The translations under genes were made by a program, and so were the position numbers. A DNA stretch of 64,000 bases from Crocinitomicaceae bacterium (GTDB taxonomy: Bacteria > Bacteroidota > Bacteroidia > Flavobacteriales_D > Crocinitomicaceae): assembly GCA_041674745.1 (NCBI GenBank), contig JBAYVD010000011.1, forward strand, positions 62,216-126,215, written 5' to 3'. Position 1 is the stretch's first letter, and every line of letters starts with the position of its first letter. Below, piece after piece: positions 2,075 through 59,812 of the stretch. Under the pieces are notes generated by a model. It was given only the letters and a program-made list of their open reading frames with translations, searched no databases and was not told where the DNA came from.

Positions 2075-5000
2075 TTAACGCATCAAGTTAATAAAACCGG
2101 CTGCTTCGTTTTCCTCGTTTCGCCAAGTTTTCACTTTTGCTTTGAATGTGTAGGTATCATTATTTTGCAAAACTCCTTTGTAATAGCCATCCCATCCATG
2201 GTCCATATCAAAGGATTCAAAGACCATTTCACCCCATCGATTAAATATCTGGAAATAAATCACTTCTTTGATTCCCCACCCGACAAGATAAATAATATCA
2301 TTAACTCCATCGCCGTTTGGTGTAAAGGTGGTTGGTAAATCAACAAATGTTTCTGGATAAATATGAATCACAAAGATTCCGTCAGCCTTAGAACAGCCTA
2401 AAATATCCTCCATTACGACCGTGTAGGTAATATCTTCTAATCCCTGATGAACGGGATTTGAACAATCATAACAACTCAAACCAGTATTGGGGGTCCAAAT
2501 AAAATTCACAAAGCCATTTTGATTCGAAATCGGTAAAGCAACCGAATCACCAACAACTATTGTAGTATCCCAATAAATATCATCCAAAGGTTGAATGACA
2601 ATGACAGAAGCTTGATCACTGGAAGAGCAATCCGTAGTGGTATCCAAAACCGTAATTGAATAATTAACCGTTTCATTCAAATTAGCGGTGGGGTTGGGAA
2701 TCGTTGCATTGGATAAGCCCGTAGAAGGCGTCCATAAATAAGTATACGCAGCGATGGTTGTATCCAAAGTCAGTTGCCCAACTTGTCCCAAACAAACCGT
2801 ATCATTGAATGCATTGAATACAGGACGATTGAACACAATTACAGATTTCACAATTGTATCACGACAGCCAAATTCAAGGTTGTAAACGCTCAAGCTGATG
2901 TTAAAAGTATCCGCCGTATTGTAGAGGTGGTTAAATGTTAAAGAGTTCGTTGTGGAGGTTGTACCGTCATCGAAATCCCAGGCAAACTGGTCGGCGTTTA
3001 GAGAAGTATTCGTTATCGTTAGAGGATCTCCCATGCAAATAGTTGTATCCAAATCGCCATTTCTTAAAAAATCAGCAATGACTTCTCGAATAAACACTGT
3101 TTTTTCAACCGTAACAGGACACGCTCCTCCCGCTCCGTAAACTGTCAACTTAGCAACAGTTTGCCCCGATGGAGGAATAAATAAATACGGATGAGCAATT
3201 GGGCTAACATCTGTTAAGCTGGTTCCATCGCCAAAATCCCAAGAATAGCCGCCAACCTGCGTTGAATCAAAAATGGTGAATTCAATTTCGTCACCCAAAC
3301 AAATATGATTGGTATCCATCAAAAAATCACCGGCTGGACCAATCACGGTGAAAGTGCTATAAGCCGTATCTCTGCAATTGTACGAAGTACTGGATATTAA
3401 CTGAACCGTGTACGTTCCTGTATTAAAAGTAAAAGCTGGATTGGGTAAATTACTAAACAAACCATTGCTAAACGTCCAATTCGTATAGGCAACCGGTGAG
3501 GTCCCTGAACTATTGTCTAAGAAATTAATGAGTTGAGGACTGCACAATGCCGGCAACGAATCTACATTACTGGCTATCGCAGCCGTTGGATAATTTTGGA
3601 CATCTATGATCACTGTATTTGTGTCTTTGCAACCCGATGAAGCTTCCGTATAAATCACTTGGGCGGTGTAACTGGTATCGCCGTTATAAGTGTGCGAAGT
3701 AAATTGTCCGCTTCCTGTAGTTCCGTCGCCAAACGTCCAAGCAAAATTCAAATTTGAACCTTGCGCGGTATAGTCTGTCGAATTAAATTGAACGGGAGAG
3801 CCTGCGCATACATGCCCGAAAAAGGGACTGATGGACAAGGTACTAATTGGTTTGTAAAAATACAAACGGTGACTGATGGTATCCTCGCAGCCGTTGGCAT
3901 CTTGAACGGTGAAAAATACCCGTGACGTATCGGCTAATACGGTTGTAAAAAGATGTGAAGGATTTTGGGTCGTAGCTGTCAACGAATCAGGGAACACCCA
4001 ATCCCAATTCGCTACGGTTGTATCCGCGGTTGTTTGATCTGTAAAAACGACTGTATTCGGGTCGCAAATGATACTATCCGAAATCGCAAATTGTGCCGTT
4101 ATATTGTATACATGAAAATTATTAGTAGCCGTATCGGTACAGCCATTGATGTCGGTGACGACCAATGTCATCGTTTGTGCCCCAGAAGTATTCAAGGAAA
4201 AATCTTCTGATGGATTCTCTGTTGTAACAGGACGAAGTGTTGGATCTGAAAAAATCCATTTGTACCCTCGGTGACAATCCGCATTCACATCAATCGATGC
4301 ACTCGCATCCCAAGGATTATCTACTCCACCGCAGTAGGTCGACAAATTATTGAAAACAGCTTGGATTTTACGAATGTGTATGAGTGCTGAATCAACTGAT
4401 GCAGAACAACCTGAGGTCGCATTGGTCGCTGTTAATTTCACCCAATAATCGCCAGTAGAAACATACGTATGCAAAGGGTCTGTGGCGGTAGAAGTAGTTC
4501 CATCCCCAAAATCCCAAAGTAAACTGGTATACCCTTGACTTTTATTATACAATTGAAGATCCATCGTGTCGGCACAATCGTAGAGATAATTAAAATCGGC
4601 TATTGGACCCAAGACCGTTAATACATTCGATAAAGTATAGTTGGAAATACACCCATTGTAATCGGCGGTTAATGTGATATCAAAAACTCCTACCGAATCA
4701 TTGAAAACAAAAACACCATTTGGGTTTTCGTGACAGGCAGAAAGCAATTCCCCATCGGATGAATAATGCCAACCATCCACTGAATCAGGGAAAATGCTTG
4801 GGGATAGATTCGTCATGGTGACCGATTCGCCAGGGCAAATCGTAGTAGGTGCTATAGAGAAATTTAGCGGGATAGTCGCCCCCACTTCTATCCAAATGGT
4901 ATCCGAAGTATTGCTGCATCCAATCGAATTATCGGCCGTCATTACAACCTGGTAGACACCTGGATTTGAGTAAACATGTATATTCGGAGCAGAGGCGGAA

Positions 5001-18543: not shown

Positions 18544-19512
18544 ATGAGAAAATTTTCATCAATCGCTATTCTATTCTTTATTCAATCGGCAAGTTTCGCG
18601 CAAGTTTCCGGCAACATCAATTACCAAAAACAAGTTGCGTTTCCTGAAAAAAACATCGATATTCGATTACAAACCAACAATGAAAACTCCATTTCCGTAA
18701 AAGGTTTGGCCAATGTAAAAGCCGATGCTTACATCGCCATTTTTAATGTTTCACAAGAAGGAAAAACCGCGGAAGAAGTAAATGAATTAATCGACAAACG
18801 CATTTCTGAGTCTTTGACGAAAATTAAATTGAAAAAGGAGATTGAAACGTATGTAGACATGATTTCATTCGTTCCGGTTTATGAATATGAAGTGGAAAAA
18901 AAGATTTTCAGCAAGAAAAATTATATGGAAATCCCGGTGGGATTTGAATTGAAAAAAACCATCCACATCCGTTATACCAATCCAAATTTCCTGAATGAAT
19001 TCATCGAAATTTTGTCACAAAACGAAATTTATGATTTGGTTCGCGTAGATTATTTCTCCACGGCATTGGAAGCCATCAAAAAAGAACTCATGACCAAAGC
19101 CAAATTGTTACTCACGGAGAAAACGAAAAATTACGAAGCCATTTTGGGAGAGACGTTTGCCAATACTGAAAAACAAATCGCCGATGGATTCAAAGTTGTT
19201 CTACCCGTGGAAATGTACCAATCTTACGAAGCATATAGCAGTTCATCACTCAACTTAAAGCGATCGGCGAATGTCAATGTTGCCCAGAAATCAAAAACCT
19301 TGTATTACCAACCGATCGTTGACAAAGAATTTGACTTTGTCATCAATCCCGTGATTTTAGAACCCGTTATTCAAGTGATGTACGAATTGAAACTCAGCGT
19401 TCTCCGAGAGAAAAAAACGGCTCCTGCTCCCACCGTTGAAGTGAAAAATACCAAAGAGTACATTTTAATCACCCCAAATGGTGATCTAAAAAACTTGAAT
19501 TTGATTAAATAA
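18544..19512 (+). CDS. Hypothetical secreted protein, possibly SIMPL/DUF541-like
   Basis: Signal peptide. ISVKGLANVKADAYIAIFNV resembles the SIMPL N-terminal motif, but the assignment is weak. Confidence 0.45.
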   Translation: MRKFSSIAILFFIQSASFAQVSGNINYQKQVAFPEKNIDIRLQTNNENSISVKGLANVKADAYIAIFNVSQEGKTAEEVNELIDKRISESLTKIKLKKEIETYVDMISFVPVYEYEVEKKIFSKKNYMEIPVGFELKKTIHIRYTNPNFLNEFIEILSQNEIYDLVRVDYFSTALEAIKKELMTKAKLLLTEKTKNYEAILGETFANTEKQIADGFKVVLPVEMYQSYEAYSSSSLNLKRSANVNVAQKSKTLYYQPIVDKEFDFVINPVILEPVIQVMYELKLSVLREKKTAPAPTVEVKNTKEYILITPNGDLKNLNLIK

Positions 19513-29759: not shown

Positions 29760-29875
29760 AACGCTCGATTGAGGTGCAAAATTAATCAAATTATCTGTGA
29801 AAGGAAGGACTAGTTTTCACGAATAAGAGAAGTTTTTCACACATCTATGGTTCTAACTTCTGGTGTTGAGTAGAT

Positions 29876-30262
29876 ATTTCATCCCGATGGGATTCGGATT
29901 CGGGGTACGCATTTTGGGATTAGATACATTGCATCCCGATGGGATTTCATTTTGAGTGAGAATTTCATGTCTCTCAGATTTCATCTCGATGGGATTCAGA
30001 TTTATAGTTAGCGCTTTGAGCCTTGGCACATTTCATCCCTATGGGATTCGGATTCGAGGTAATCATTTTGAGATTAGATACATTACATCCCGATGGGATT
30101 TCATTTTGAGTGAGAATTTAATGCCTTTTAGATTTCATCCCGATTGGATTCAGATTTATAGTTAGCGCTTTGAGCCTTGGCACATTTCATCCCGATGTGA
30201 TTCGGATTCGGGGTACGCATATTGGGATTAAATACATTACATCCCGATGGGATTTCATTTTG
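29876..30262. repeat. REP/BIME-like array: 154-bp composite unit repeated about 2.5 times (units start at 29876, 30030 and 30184)
   Basis: Each unit holds three copies of the hairpin core CATCCCGATGGGATT (stem ATCCC/GGGAT, loop GAT) in three flank contexts (A, B, C). The units align nearly base-for-base. Confidence 0.85.
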
Positions 30263-30399
30263 AAACCAAGTCCTGTAAGGACGATATCCTTTAACCACAA
30301 AAGCTTCCCAACGCAGCAAAAGTCCCAGCGGGACGACATATTTTGCCTAAATTTTAGAAATAGAACTGATAAATCTTGCTTTAAATCAACTTTTGAAAT
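30263..30399. repeat. About 137-bp repeat module D, copy 1
   Basis: AAACCAAGTCCTGTAAGGACGATATCC...AGTCCCAGCGGGACGAC...AAATCTTGCTTTAAATCAACTTTTGAAAT, repeated at 30573-30733. Contains two further 5-bp-stem, 3-nt-loop hairpins (GTCCTgtaAGGAC and GTCCCagcGGGAC). Confidence 0.85.
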
Positions 30400-30572
30400 T
30401 ACATCCCGATGGGATTTCATTGTTTTTTTTAGACCGTGTTGATTTCAGCCCAATGGGATTCGGATTTGAGGTAAGCATTTTGAGATTAGATGCATTTCAT
30501 CCCGATGGGATTCGGATTCGGGGTAAGCATTTTGAGATTAGATACATTACATCTCGATGGGATTTCATTGGT
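30400..30572. repeat. Four more copies of the CATCCCGATGGGATT-type hairpin repeat
   Basis: Cores lie near 30401, 30448, 30498 and 30550, some with 1-3 substitutions. Confidence 0.8.
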
Positions 30573-30733
30573 AAACCAAGTCCTGTAAGGACGATATCCT
30601 TGTAACCACAAAAACCTCCCAACTCGCAAAAGTCCCAGCGGGACGACATATTTTGCCGAAATTTTAGAAATAGAACTGATAAATCTTGCTTTAAATCTTG
30701 CTTTAAATCTTGCTTTAAATCAACTTTTGAAAT
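30573..30733. repeat. Repeat module D, copy 2, immediately upstream of the Y1 transposase gene
   Basis: About 90% identical by eye to 30263-30399, but with the 12-bp unit AAATCTTGCTTT present three times instead of once. Confidence 0.85.
30681..30716. repeat. 12-bp tandem repeat (AAATCTTGCTTT) x3
   Basis: Three perfect tandem copies. A single copy sits at the equivalent position in module D copy 1 (30371-30382). Confidence 0.9.
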
Positions 30734-30765
30734 AACTTAAAGTGAAAATTTTAAAATACTACTAA

Positions 30766-31233
30766 ATGGCGAACACCTATACCCAGATTTACATGCAATT
30801 TGTTTGCGTGGTAAAGTATCGAAGCAACCTGATCCATACATCATGGAAAGTTGAACTATACAAATATATTACCGGCATTGTTGAAGCGAAAGGTCATAAA
30901 CTTTTAGCAATTAATGGAATGCCGGATCACCTGCATATATTGATTTCGATGAAGCCCCATCAATCTACTTCTGAACTTTGTCAAGTAATCAAAGCAAATT
31001 CATCACGTTGGATTAATGAACGGAAATTTACTCGATCGAAATTCGAATGGCAAAGTGGTTTTGGCGCTTTTTCATATTCAAAATCACACGTATCGAGCGT
31101 TGCAACGTATATTCATAATCAAGAAATTCATCACGCCAAAAAGACTTTTCACAAAGAGTATCAGGAATTTCTAATAGAACATGAGATTGATTTTGATGAG
31201 AACTATACTTTTCATGAACCTTTGGATGAGTAG
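30766..31233 (+). CDS. HUH/Y1 tyrosine transposase, REP-associated (RAYT) / IS200-IS605 TnpA-like
   Basis: 155 aa. HUH motif in PDHLHILIS, FEWQSGFGAFSYS, and the catalytic Tyr context VATYIHNQEIHH. Single gene with no TnpB, flanked on both sides by the hairpin repeat. Confidence 0.8.
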   Translation: MANTYTQIYMQFVCVVKYRSNLIHTSWKVELYKYITGIVEAKGHKLLAINGMPDHLHILISMKPHQSTSELCQVIKANSSRWINERKFTRSKFEWQSGFGAFSYSKSHVSSVATYIHNQEIHHAKKTFHKEYQEFLIEHEIDFDENYTFHEPLDE

Positions 31234-31242
31234 GAGATGTAT

Positions 31243-31316
31243 CATCCCGATGGGATTCCTATTACGATTGATTTTCTTCAGATTAGCGACATTTCATCAC
31301 GATGTGATTTCATTTT
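31243..31316. repeat. Two hairpin-repeat copies downstream of the Y1 transposase gene
   Basis: CATCCCGATGGGATT at 31243-31257 and a degenerate ATTTCATCACGATGTGATTTCATTTT at 31291-31316. Confidence 0.75.
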
Positions 31317-31433
31317 AAACTAGAATTTGATTCGTTTCACCTTAGATTGGAATTTGATAGATACTTAAGTTATTGAACCTCCTATTTTCAAATCTTTCCT
31401 TAACTTCGCCACTCAAATAGATATTTAGCGAAT

Positions 31434-32825
31434 ATGAATTACGATATTATTGTCATAGGAAGTGGACCAGGTGGATATGTAACTGCCATTCGTGCCGCGC
31501 AATTGGGTTTGAAAACGGCAATTGTAGAAAAAGAAAATCTTGGAGGAGTTTGTTTGAATTGGGGTTGTATCCCAACAAAAGCATTGTTAAAAAGTGCCAA
31601 CGTTTTCGAATACATCAACCATGCAGCTGATTATGGAATCAAAGTGGCGGCACCAACTGCTGATTTTGGTGGAATGGTCAACCGAAGTCGTGACGTAGCC
31701 GGCGGTATGAGCAAAGGTGTTCAATTCTTGTTGAAAAAAAACAAAATTGACGTTTTGATGGGTACTGGTGTTGTGAAACCTGGTAAAAAAGTAGCGGTTA
31801 CAGATGCGGATGGCAAAGTAACGGAGTACGCAGCTGACAAAGGTTTGATCATCGCTACTGGCGCTAGAAGTCGTCAATTGCCAAACTTACCACAAGACGG
31901 TGAAAAAATCATTGGTTACCGTGAAGCAATGACATTGAAATCACAGCCGAAAAAATTAGTTGTGGTTGGTTCAGGTGCTATCGGTGTTGAGTTTGCTTAT
32001 TTCTACAACGCGATCGGAACAGAAGTTACAATCATAGAATACATGCCAAACATCGTTCCGATTGAAGACATTGAAGTTTCAAAGCAATTGGAAAAATCTT
32101 TCAAAAAAGCAGGAATCAATGTGATGACAGGTTCATCTGTTGAATCGGTTAGCACGAAAGGTAAAGGTTGTGTTGTAACCGTAAAAACAGCAAAAGGAGA
32201 AGAAAAAATCGAATGCGATGTTGTTCTTTCTGCCGTTGGTATTGAGGCCAACATTCAAAATATTGGTTTGGAAGAAATGGGAATTGTAACGGATAAAGGT
32301 CGTATTCTTGTAAACGATTTCTACCAAACAAACATTCCAGGCTATTATGCAATCGGCGATGTAATTCCAACTGCTGCTTTGGCACACGTTGCTTCTGCTG
32401 AAGGTATTATTTGTGTTGAGAAAATAGCAGGACACAATCCAGAACCATTGGATTATGGAAATATCCCAGGATGTACTTATGCTTCTCCTGAAATTTCATC
32501 CGTTGGAATGACAGAAGCACAGGCGATCGAAAAAGGATTCAAAATCAAAGTAGGTAAATTCCCATTCTCAGCTTCAGGTAAAGCAAGTGCTGCCGGAGCA
32601 AAAGATGGATTTGTGAAGTTGATTTTCGACGAACAATACGGTGAAGTTTTAGGTGCACATATGATTGGCGCTAACGTAACTGAGATGATTGCTGAAATCG
32701 TTGCGATTCGCAAACTGGAAACAACCGGTCATGAGTTGATCAAAACAGTTCACCCGCATCCAACCATGTCGGAAGCGATCATGGAAGCGGCAGCGGCAGC
32801 TTACGGAGAGGTGATTCACTTGTAA
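31434..32825 (+). CDS. lpdA: Dihydrolipoyl dehydrogenase
   Basis: YD..VIGSGPGGY..A.RAAQLG, the redox-active GGVCLNWGCIPTK, GDV and HPHPT.SE. Confidence 0.92.
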   Translation: MNYDIIVIGSGPGGYVTAIRAAQLGLKTAIVEKENLGGVCLNWGCIPTKALLKSANVFEYINHAADYGIKVAAPTADFGGMVNRSRDVAGGMSKGVQFLLKKNKIDVLMGTGVVKPGKKVAVTDADGKVTEYAADKGLIIATGARSRQLPNLPQDGEKIIGYREAMTLKSQPKKLVVVGSGAIGVEFAYFYNAIGTEVTIIEYMPNIVPIEDIEVSKQLEKSFKKAGINVMTGSSVESVSTKGKGCVVTVKTAKGEEKIECDVVLSAVGIEANIQNIGLEEMGIVTDKGRILVNDFYQTNIPGYYAIGDVIPTAALAHVASAEGIICVEKIAGHNPEPLDYGNIPGCTYASPEISSVGMTEAQAIEKGFKIKVGKFPFSASGKASAAGAKDGFVKLIFDEQYGEVLGAHMIGANVTEMIAEIVAIRKLETTGHELIKTVHPHPTMSEAIMEAAAAAYGEVIHL

Positions 32826-56777: not shown

Positions 56778-56864
56778 GGAGGGATGGGTGAGTGGCTGAA
56801 ACCACCAGTTTGCTAAACTGACGTACGGGTAACTGTACCGCGGGTTCGAATCCCGCTCTCTCCG
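56778..56864 (+). tRNA. tRNA-Ser (anticodon GCT)
   Basis: Folded by hand. Acceptor GGAGGGA/TCTCTCC, anticodon loop TTGCTAA, long variable arm GTACGG-GTAA-CTGTAC, T-arm GCGGG-TTCGAAT-CCCGC. CCA is not encoded. Confidence 0.9.
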
Positions 56865-56904
56865 CATAAAACAAAGAAAATAGTTCGAAATATTTATTTT
56901 TTTC

Positions 56905-56934
56905 TTGCTATTTTCATTTTTAACAGTATCTTTG
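56905..56934 (+). promoter_or_regulatory. Candidate sigma-A promoter (TTG-N19-TATCTTTG) for tRNA-Pro
   Basis: Exact consensus spacing, 60 nt upstream of tRNA-Pro. Confidence 0.5.
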
Positions 56935-56994
56935 CACTCGCTTTGACAATCTAGCGATAGAAAATCAAGCGACAAAAGACGAACTTTTAGAGTT

Positions 56995-57068
56995 CGGGGT
57001 GTAGCGTAGCCCGGTATCGCGCCTCGTTTGGGACGAGGAGGTCGTAGGTTCGAATCCTGCCACCCCGA
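56995..57068 (+). tRNA. tRNA-Pro (anticodon TGG)
   Basis: Acceptor CGGGGTG/CACCCCG, anticodon stem CCTCG/CGAGG with loop TTTGGGA, T-loop TTCGAAT. Confidence 0.9.
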
Positions 57069-57072
57069 CACT

Positions 57073-57098
57073 GGGGAAGAGAAATCTTCCCCTTTTTT
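57073..57098 (+). terminator. Rho-independent terminator after tRNA-Pro
   Basis: GGGGAAGA-GAAA-TCTTCCCC followed by T6. Confidence 0.7.
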
Positions 57099-57125
57099 AT
57101 TTCCAATGGTTTGTAAAAAATCATT

Positions 57126-57177
57126 GGGCTTTATAGCTCAGTCCGCAGCGGCGGAAGCAACTGCCAAAGTTGCAGAG
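57126..57177 (+). pseudogene. Degenerate 5'-half copy of tRNA-Arg with its D-loop replaced by a 14-nt GC palindrome
   Basis: GGGCTTTATAGCTCAG + TCCGCAGCGGCGGA + AGCAACTGCC... aligns to tRNA-Arg positions TAGCTCAG/AGCAACTGCC. The upstream flank (TTGTAAAAAATCATTGG) also resembles the flank of the intact gene (TTGTAAAATGATTGG). There is no T-arm. Confidence 0.5.
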
Positions 57178-57190
57178 TTGTAAAATGATT

Positions 57191-57264
57191 GGCCCCGTAG
57201 CTCAGCTGGATAGAGCAACTGCCTTCTAAGCAGTAGGTCTTTGGTTCGAATCCAAACGGGGTCA
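57191..57264 (+). tRNA. tRNA-Arg (anticodon TCT)
   Basis: Acceptor GGCCCCG/CGGGGTC, D-arm GCTC-AGCTGGATA-GAGC, anticodon loop CTTCTAA, T-arm TTTGG-TTCGAAT-CCAAA. Confidence 0.9.
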
Positions 57265-57265
57265 C

Positions 57266-57293
57266 AAAAGAGGAAGCAACCGCTTCCTCTTTT
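57266..57293 (+). terminator. Rho-independent terminator after tRNA-Arg
   Basis: AAAAGAGGAAGC-AACC-GCTTCCTCTTTT. An identical copy lies at about 57622-57649. Confidence 0.65.
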
Positions 57294-57312
57294 CAGTTTA
57301 ACACTATTTTTT

Positions 57313-57570
57313 ATGACCTATTATTCATATGTGCTGCGCTCCTTGGAAAATGGAATGCTGTATAAAGGATCCACTGAAAATATCGTAAATCGACTAGCAA
57401 CACATAATTCAGGAAAAGTACGTTTTACCTCACGCCATTTACCTTGGGAATTAATTTTAGTAGAAGAATTCACAACCCGAGCGGACGCTATGAAACGCGA
57501 AAAATGGTACAAAACTGGAGTCGGAAGGGAATGGATTAACAATGAAATTCAAAACAGAGAAAATGGATAG
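57313..57570 (+). CDS. Small GIY-YIG nuclease family protein
   Basis: 85 aa: MTYYSYVLRSLENGMLYKGSTENIVNRLATHNSG....T....PWELI..EEF.T...A...E...K. The Slx1/UPF0213-like GIY..YIG core. The start at 57313 lies after the tRNA-Arg terminator, and the stop codon lies inside a tRNA-derived segment. Confidence 0.8.
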   Translation: MTYYSYVLRSLENGMLYKGSTENIVNRLATHNSGKVRFTSRHLPWELILVEEFTTRADAMKREKWYKTGVGREWINNEIQNRENG

Positions 57571-57694
57571 AGCAATCCGCCGCGGCGGATAGGTCTTTGG
57601 TTCGAATCCAAACGGGGTCACAAAAGAGGAAGCAACCGCTTCCTCTTTTCGGTTTAACACTATTTTTTATGAGCTATTATTCTTATGTGCTGCG
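57564..57694 (+). repeat. Partial duplicate of the tRNA-Arg 3' portion, terminator and first 27 nt of the GIY-YIG ORF, with the anticodon arm replaced by the palindrome TCCGCCGCGGCGGA
   Basis: 57590-57694 matches 57234-57338 over 105 bp with about 4 mismatches. TGGATAGAGCAA (57564-57575) matches the D-loop region. 57576-57589 is a perfect 14-nt palindrome. The duplicated ORF start (MSYYSYVLR) runs into a stop after 22 codons. Confidence 0.8.
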
Positions 57695-59738: not shown

Positions 59739-59812
59739 GGTTTGGTAGTTCAGTTGGTTAGAATACCTGCCTGTCACGCAGGGGGTCGCGGGTTCGAGTC
59801 CCGTCCAGACCG
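59739..59812 (+). tRNA. tRNA-Asp (anticodon GTC)
   Basis: Acceptor GGTTTGG/CCAGACC, anticodon stem CCTGC/GCAGG with loop CTGTCAC, T-arm GCGGG-TTCGAGT-CCCGT. Confidence 0.9.

Follow-up and report, generated by a model that had tools for sequence, protein, structure and literature searches.

We analysed a 64,000-nt stretch of DNA (hereafter the window; coordinates are positions in it) from a Crocinitomicaceae metagenome-assembled genome (MAG), in which a lone gene for a Y1/HUH protein lies within a dense cluster of short hairpins between purL and lpdA. REPtrons combine a repetitive extragenic palindromic (REP)-associated tyrosine transposase (RAYT, or TnpA_REP) with its REP sequences, which also occur as bacterial interspersed mosaic elements (BIME) and as inverted REP doublets (REPIN) (Nunvar 2010; Bertels & Rainey 2011; Ton-Hoang 2012, PMC3333891). 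Our results suggested that the segment in the window is probably a REPtron-like cassette whose core is a domesticated Y1/HUH gene related to IS200. Hairpin modules of fixed orientation accompany this gene across its family and their stems covary. The gene appears to be inherited vertically, is under purifying selection and has been lost in sister lineages, and the hairpins have stayed at the locus wherever they were searched for.

Hairpin ends and array of the purL-lpdA cassette

The hairpin motif CATCCCGATGGGATT was searched in the window with up to two mismatches, and 15 matches were found, against 0.10 expected from shuffled sequences. Fourteen of them lie within 29880-31309, all on the + strand, 12 upstream and two downstream of the Y1 open reading frame (ORF), which agrees with the roughly 14 copies counted in the initial annotation of this DNA. 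The remaining match, at 18930, falls within a 322-aa ORF and is due to chance. Tandem Repeats Finder recovered the 154-bp super-unit described before (2.5 copies, 91% matches, 29876-30263), together with a 52-bp-period array (2.4 copies, 30442-30564) and a 12-bp microsatellite at 30680-30721. The neighbours of the Y1 ORF are purL (- strand, ATG at 29760) and lpdA (31434-32825). No ORF longer than 90 aa besides the Y1 gene was found in the interval between them, so the locus has no TnpB, as had been stated. An independent ENA assembly (L109) was 100% identical to the window from position 30010 on, its contig breaking inside the array; an assembly artefact is therefore ruled out from 30010 on, while 29876-30009 lies outside this comparison. 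A CRISPR-like array was also rejected, the spacers recurring within the 154-bp unit, the repeats being just 15-26 nt long and the sole neighbours of the cassette being purL and lpdA. No RNA family was detected at the locus in Rfam searches, whether run at gathering thresholds or at E<=10.

The whole cassette is a lineage-specific segment at 29842-31382, between the conserved purL leader (ending ...GAAGTTTTTCACA at 29841) and the conserved lpdA leader (starting TATTTTCAAATC at 31383). Its parts, all on the + strand, follow the order right end (2.5 times), gene-less left end, four right-end modules, left end, leader with microsatellite, gene and right end. The gene itself (30766-31233) is intact. 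Its right end starts with a proximal module, ATGTATC + ATCCC-GAT-GGGAT (31239-31262), whose hairpin begins 11 nt past the stop codon. The distal module, TTAGCGACATTTC + ATCAC-GAT-GTGAT (31282-31314; pairing read from the sequence, DNA fold -2.0 kcal/mol), has a tag resembling the family tag CTACCGATATTT, and its hairpin copy at 31295 carries a compensatory double change that leaves the pairing perfect. Together, the hairpins at 31243 and 31295 downstream of the gene make up the canonical right-end pair. A faint third right-end module, probably decayed, was recognized at 31335-31358 from its repeat family and alignment; the third hairpin of each 154-bp unit would correspond to it.

On the other side, the hairpin listing and the family consensus (hairpin+GATAT and hairpin+AAATATYGGTAG for the upstream modules) placed the left end of the gene-bearing copy at 30580-30651, with GTCCT-GTA-AGGAC+GATAT at 30580-30599 and GTCCC-AGC-GGGAC+GACATAT at 30632-30651. 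These hairpins are the inverted partners of those in the right end. In the leader between this left end and the ATG, the microsatellite (30680-30721) consists of 3.5 units of TAAATCTTGCTT and shifts the proximal hairpin to -134, compared with the usual -23. The same unit is present 1.5 times in the gene-less copy (30370-30387), and its expansion sits at the likely promoter position.

The gene-less left-end copy (30256-30400, block 30236-30402) is 93.5% identical over 153 nt to 30546-30697. Its distal module GTCCT-GTA-AGGAC+GATAT (30270-30289) and proximal module GTCCC-AGC-GGGAC+GACATAT (30322-30341) both have the loop and tag orientation of the upstream modules in the family. They are followed by a leader of about 60 nt, and the copy runs straight into a right-end hairpin at 30402. 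This hairpin opens a group of four more right-end-type modules (30398-30569; hairpins at 30402, 30446, 30498 and 30550, that at 30446 being degenerate), identified by motif search, 52-bp period and repeat families. The 154-bp tandem array contributes eight further hairpins of the same type, at 29880, 29932, 29982, 30034, 30086, 30136, 30188 and 30240, grouped by repeat family. Each of its units is a copy of the entire right end: in alignment with 31234-31392 it matches the true end at 70 of 97 positions.

All 12 upstream 15-mers have the right-end orientation, and the 15-mers originally reported are right-end hairpins and modules. Two earlier statements had to be revised here. Conserved inverted end modules exist where no insertion sequence (IS) ends had been seen. 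The copies had also been described as all having one orientation, without inverted partners. With three mismatches allowed, CATCCCGATGGGATT also matched the - strand, at 30321-30335 and 30631-30645, and with the hairpins at 30270 and 30580 these two inverted copies form the left-end pairs (30270/30322 and 30580/30632). Within the homologue sample described below, the window is the most expanded example.

Hairpin modules around relatives across Bacteroidota

Homologues were scanned in 185,579 species genomes, which gave at least 581 loci, and 80 of these were kept with flanks of up to 10 kb. As counted around 83 homologous genes, perfect [AG]TCC[CT]-N3-5-[AG]GGA[CT] hairpins occurred at 3.64/kb from -600 to +300 and at 0.049/kb farther off, and nearly all of the hairpins farther off belonged to array extensions no more than about 1.1 kb away from it. 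Across the homologue loci, modules were 74-90 times denser near the gene than at distance. The initial annotation had taken the hairpins for the probable cognate repeats of the gene, and the like hairpins flanking homologues in other genomes bear this out.

The layout was constant. A distal module, consisting of a 5-bp hairpin and (t/a)AAATAT(C/T)GGTAG, lies at about -75, and closer to the gene, at about -23, comes a proximal one in which the 5-bp hairpin is followed by GATAT. Mirror-image modules follow downstream at about +6 and +57, the right pair being the inverted left pair, so that the gene is flanked by inverted cognate hairpins as described for RAYT genes. In a stem-independent count of any 5-bp GC-rich hairpin plus tag, the upstream 150 nt held 7.2 forward and 1.2 reverse modules per kb, the downstream 150 nt held 2.0 forward and 8.3 reverse, and sequence more than 1.5 kb from the gene held 0.10 forward and 0.08 reverse. 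Modules in the wrong orientation were thus 4-6 times rarer near the gene. At least one side carried a module in 69 of the 80 loci, and the loci with modules occupy unrelated chromosomal sites.

The pairing of the stems was also conserved. At the outer pair of the CCC/GGG-anchored stems, A-T (195) and G-C (151) greatly outnumbered A.C (21) and G.T (10). The sixth position was unpaired, which sets the stem at 5 bp, as short as first described. Loci without the ATCCC type had the same layout with other stems (GCTCC, GCCCC, ACCCC, GCGAC, GTCGC, GGTGC, ATGCC, GTTCC and GTTGC), whole stems being swapped between clades with the architecture unchanged. The flank on the tag side was better conserved than the opposite flank in 32 of 37 loci. 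Taken together, the density, layout, covariation and one-sided conservation indicated that the hairpins are cognate to the gene, that pairing rather than sequence is conserved, and that the modules are oriented.

Smaller versions of the multi-end pattern of the window were seen at other loci, for example L031, L025 and L018. Locus L065 has a clean 165-bp gene-less unit in the order distal-proximal-proximal-distal, two tandem copies of which adjoin the gene; an intergenic gap 5.6 kb from the gene holds a third. A downstream array at L009 (10490-10910) contains about 10 conserved 26-nt modules (TTACCGATATGTTGTCCCTACGGGAC) separated by diverged spacers of about 20 nt; since the modules were kept while the spacers diverged, either selection acts on the module itself or the module is regenerated. 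At L029 (10465-11400), nine near-perfect 49-bp tandem modules of left-end type stand downstream, on the "wrong" side, and a different stem, ATGCC/GGCAT, is found next to the gene. A compact array with a 26-bp period, GCCCC-TGAC-GGGGC+TACCCATATGCC, comes directly after the stop codon at L044. Four short, low-GC metagenome contigs without a Y1 gene (L091, L105, L089 and L097) carry 2-4 family hairpins each, and these clusters could be gene-less units or contigs cut near the gene.

Dispersal of the hairpins was examined at several scales. No tagged module was found outside the locus in the 64-kb window. Beyond 1.5 kb from the gene, the homologue flanks (1.08 Mb) contained tagged modules at chance level, with 13 of distal type against about 10 expected, the latter being an estimate from the proximal-type count. 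In 124 of the 602 kb of the Bernardetia sp. Wsw4-3y2 chromid (NZ_CP147018.1), the GTTGC/GCAAC stem occurred just in the four-module unit at tnpA and in one untagged copy within coding sequence. The dispersed REPs that had been proposed were therefore not found: within the sequence searched, the motif occurs only at the locus, which the initial annotation had itself named as the outcome that would speak against a REP family, and to that extent the REP reading fails. That four-module unit (L118 19755-19930; NZ_CP147018.1, 53755-53927) is complete and gene-less and stands directly upstream of tnpA, with no modules downstream; the same chromid holds a second Y1 match. A metagenome scan for ATTWCATCCCGATGGGATTY returned 26 single matches and did not recover the source genome.

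The Y1 protein, its class and its inheritance

The 155-aa ORF matched Pfam PF01797 (Y1_Tnp) at 2e-28, and the lone HUH/Y1 gene with DHLH and YIHNQ motifs was found as annotated. Its catalytic residues are D54-H55-L56-H57, W95-Q96 and Y115-IHN-Q119-EI-H122-H123, and every residue invariant in the family alignment is present. The NCBIfam model transpos_IS200 (NF033573) was passed with a score of 73.5 (cut-off 55), and REP_Tyr_transpos (NF047646) was failed with 39.8 bits (cut-off 80). PDB searches with the single protein and with a 23-sequence family profile returned the ISDra2, IS608 and Sulfolobus TnpA structures, down to 2.8e-12, and neither query matched E. coli TnpA_REP (4ER8), even at E<=10. 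Consistent results were obtained with an AlphaFold2 model (mean predicted local distance difference test score 84.7), whose best Foldseek matches were ISDra2 and IS608 TnpA, with 4ER8 at rank 30.

In the survey of Quentin et al. 2018 (BMC Genomics 19:475, PMC6006769), class 2 (RAYT) is defined by Y---NP. The IS200-sister subclass 1.2 is characterized by Y---Q--HH, DH[IV]H, WQ, a length of about 148 aa and a specific C-terminal tail, and is reported from Bacteroidetes and Cyanobacteria at low copy number, without IS properties and with the entry "REP: no". The protein in the window has YIHNQEIHH (family consensus YIxNQExHH), EWQ and DHLH, the third residue of which is I, L or V across the family. 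It is 155 aa long, compared with 153 in relatives, and has the invariant C-terminal residues F128, E131, Y132, L136 and F149; its host is a member of the Bacteroidetes. Because of its motifs it was filed under TnpA-Y1 subclass 1.2, which it appears to fit as judged by the published motifs rather than by the sequences or models of those authors. The term RAYT-like used in the initial annotation does not apply, given Y---Q--HH instead of Y---NP, the two NCBIfam scores and a family profile that misses 4ER8. About 20 of the top 150 family representatives, P0241, P0245 and P0246 among them, are proteins of about 290 aa with two complete Y1 domains per chain, each with HUH and Y...Q..HH motifs; these may be single-chain versions of the usual dimer.

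Outside the same organism, the nearest relatives among 5.8 billion proteins were at most 68% identical, and an exact look-up of P0001 gave no match. Flanking genes are conserved within related groups; among Arcicella, Emticicia and a third genome, Y1 identity is 73-76% and that of the neighbouring proteins about 91%. Syntenic orthologous pairs had a ratio of nonsynonymous to synonymous substitution rates (dN/dS) of 0.02-0.13. With this synteny and constraint, the Y1 gene appears to behave like a domesticated gene. No second Y1 copy was found within +/-10 kb at 82 loci. Relatives were present on 2 of 72,556 plasmids, both of them non-mobilizable Bacteroidota replicons of about 0.6 Mb, and no relative was found in phages.

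The purL-lpdA site was then compared among sister lineages, ordered here by LpdA identity. At 96% (L116), the site holds a Y1 pseudogene with lost start, stop codons, frameshifts and a destroyed HUH motif; no intact hairpin is left, so that gene and hairpins have decayed together. At 95% (L111), the last 13 codons of the gene and two degenerate modules remain. At 94%, 93% and 90% (L117, L113 and L115), the intergenic region is a clean 170-196 bp, and in L113, L114, L115 and L117 (LpdA 90-94% identical) about 40 nt stand where the window has the cassette. These site states indicated that the cassette is an old insertion now being lost in sister lineages. The loss resembles that of tnpA_REP, which is missing from some E. 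coli strains (PMC3333891). L116, the closest relative of the window, also has a 357-aa ORF (3743-4816) with no Pfam match on record, located between its Y1 pseudogene and lpdA.

Elsewhere in the window, a 105-nt direct repeat (57234-57338 and 57590-57694, 97% identical) was observed beside a tRNA cluster (tRNAs at 56778-57264 and 59739-59812).

Alternative explanations, proposed mechanism and meaning

Several points weigh against a REPtron-like cassette. The evidence consists of sequence comparison and predicted structure, and membership in subclass 1.2 carries the qualification given above. The hairpins are weak as DNA (-2.0 to -3.9 kcal/mol), and those of the CATCCCGATGGGATT type are no more stable than shuffled sequence, so thermodynamics was not counted as evidence. 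Within the window array, divergence is as rapid in the 15-mers (3 differences in 45 nt) as in the spacers (9 in 109 nt); the extra array copies therefore look neutral, and the array may owe as much to slippage as to an enzyme. Plain slippage or unequal crossing-over would indeed give tandem structure of 154, 310 and 12 bp, and a palindromic binding site in double-stranded DNA would yield the same covariation as a hairpin. Dispersal in the source organism was judged from its 64-kb window.

An ordinary IS200-type insertion sequence with TnpA only, whose ends would be the hairpins and whose repeated self-adjacent insertion would have left the array as junk, accounts for the NCBIfam IS200 equivalog match, the nearest solved structures (IS200/IS605 TnpA), the presence or absence of the cassette at the same purL-lpdA site among close relatives and the gene-less derivatives. 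We nevertheless consider it quite improbable. Such an element is at odds with the lack of a second nearby copy, with the distance of all relatives outside the organism, with the near absence of relatives from plasmids and phages, and with a locus that is syntenic across genera down to a Y1 identity of 73% under strong constraint. Moreover, IS200/IS605 elements lack terminal inverted repeats and work on the top strand only (PMC3333891), in contrast to the inverted ends seen here. A canonical RAYT with a genome-dispersed REP/REPIN family, as proposed in the initial annotation, is the least credible of the alternatives and has hardly any chance of being correct. The seemingly single-copy Y1 gene, the inverted flanking hairpins, the local clusters and some Joint Genome Institute (JGI) annotations of relatives as "REP element-mobilizing transposase RayT" would agree with it, but by sequence criteria it is already contradicted, by the tyrosine motif, the failed NCBIfam RAYT model, the missed 4ER8 and the lack of any stem of 7 bp or longer with GT[AG]G at its 5' foot, and the hairpins are not dispersed in the window, the homologue flanks or the Bernardetia chromid.

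The hairpins might instead be mainly regulatory or structural signals for the gene that the protein does not cut, such as autoregulation operators, terminators, read-through insulators or mRNA stem-loops as in the IS200 leader, with arrays arising by pure slippage. This is unlikely, if somewhat less so than an ordinary insertion sequence. The proximal hairpins do stand at the start codon (about -23) and just past the stop (about +6), the window array copies evolve neutrally, tandem periods of 154, 52 and 12 bp fit slippage, and a double-stranded palindrome explains the covariation equally well. Yet the modules are inverted on both sides, and gene-less four-module units lie 5.6 kb from any gene; the L009 array keeps its modules while its spacers diverge, and no Rfam family matched. 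Since the G.T wobble was not favoured over A.C (10 vs 21), a stem at the RNA level gains no special support.

If the segment is a REPtron-like cassette, as we favour, its mechanism may be modelled on IS608/ISDra2 TnpA and E. coli TnpA_REP (PMC6006769, PMC3333891), and a dimeric Y1 enzyme would bind the hairpins while the DNA is single-stranded. It would cut and rejoin at a site set by the adjacent tag or neighbouring bases, forming a 5'-phosphotyrosine. The candidate cleavage site is a conserved (C/T)TACC 8-9 nt 5' of the hairpin, which is GGTA(G/A) 3' on the other strand. Extra modules and gene-less left+right units might then arise beside the gene by cut-and-join, by slippage or unequal recombination between modules, or by both, and some benefit would presumably keep the gene. 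Doublets with outward-facing tags had gaps of 7-105 nt. A donor joint, that is, two inward-facing tags within 120 nt as the mark of precise gene excision, was not found; outward-tag doublets only were seen.

Compared with known systems, the cassette is REPtron-like without having a RAYT, and its protein is IS200-like although the element does not act as an IS. The cassette resembles REPtrons in its seemingly single and vertically inherited Y1 gene with variable numbers of inverted cognate hairpins, local hairpin amplification, gene loss in some lineages and inverted doublets with outward tags. It differs from them in having Y---Q rather than Y---NP, 5-bp stems rather than stems of at least 7 bp and GGTAG on the 3' side of the hairpin, 8-9 nt off, where REPs have GTAG at the 5' foot, and its hairpins stay at the gene instead of populating the genome. 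IS200/IS605 TnpA (class 1.1; IS608, ISDra2, IS200) is closest in sequence and fold and shares the HUH + Y...Q set, small hairpins, a presumed cleavage site at some distance and gene-less derivatives like miniature inverted-repeat transposable elements (MITEs); unlike those elements, the cassette is not multicopy, is not on mobile replicons, has inverted ends rather than ends on one strand, lacks TnpB and occupies a locus with synteny across genera. In the survey of Quentin et al. 2018, non-canonical weak structures around the Y1 gene, found by manual inspection only, are also described for TnpA-Y1 class 3 and subclass 2.6, the latter likewise from Bacteroidetes. They differ in their motifs (Y----Q in class 3; YIH[QN]NP with about 179 aa in 2.6) and in having structures elsewhere in the genome, up to about 600 copies in class 3.

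Subclass 1.2 agrees with the window protein in Y---Q--HH, DH-hydrophobic-H and WQ, in a length of about 150 aa that includes a conserved C-terminal tail (about 30 aa), in low copy number without IS behaviour and in its occurrence in Bacteroidetes (PMC6006769). It was published as lacking REPs or terminal structures, whereas here a conserved cassette has two hairpin modules per side; this is a departure from the published description, not a ground for exclusion. The automatic REP search in that study looked for stems of 7-20 bp with GTAG or GTGG 0-2 nt away on their 5' side and could not detect these modules, because their stems are 5 bp and the tag is 8-9 nt away. Our literature search found no paper describing the hairpin cassette.

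Subclass 1.2 Y1 genes are annotated everywhere as "IS200/IS605 family transposase", and since the sole systematic survey gave them no DNA structures, there has been neither a substrate nor a hypothesis for them. The present analysis supplies a candidate substrate, a 5-bp hairpin plus tag in a two-plus-two inverted layout with covarying stems, with which the enzyme could be tested using four oligonucleotides. REP searches that demand long stems and GTAG at the foot would miss a phylum-wide set of such cassettes. With its IS200-like sequence, its REPtron-like layout and inheritance and its unspread repeats, the cassette would be an evolutionary stepping stone from a selfish IS200 to a domesticated REP/RAYT system. 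A broader idea, which we put forward as speculative and rather doubtful, is that self-contained REPtrons made up of subclass 1.2 enzymes and their 5-bp modules constitute a distinct class found throughout the phylum. The nuclease would act on its own locus only, expanding and contracting it and now and then budding off 165-bp gene-less units, and would never colonise the genome. Such a class could be a living intermediate between IS200 and REP/RAYT, whose selected function may be local processing of single-stranded DNA at a single site in the chromosome rather than repeat dispersal.

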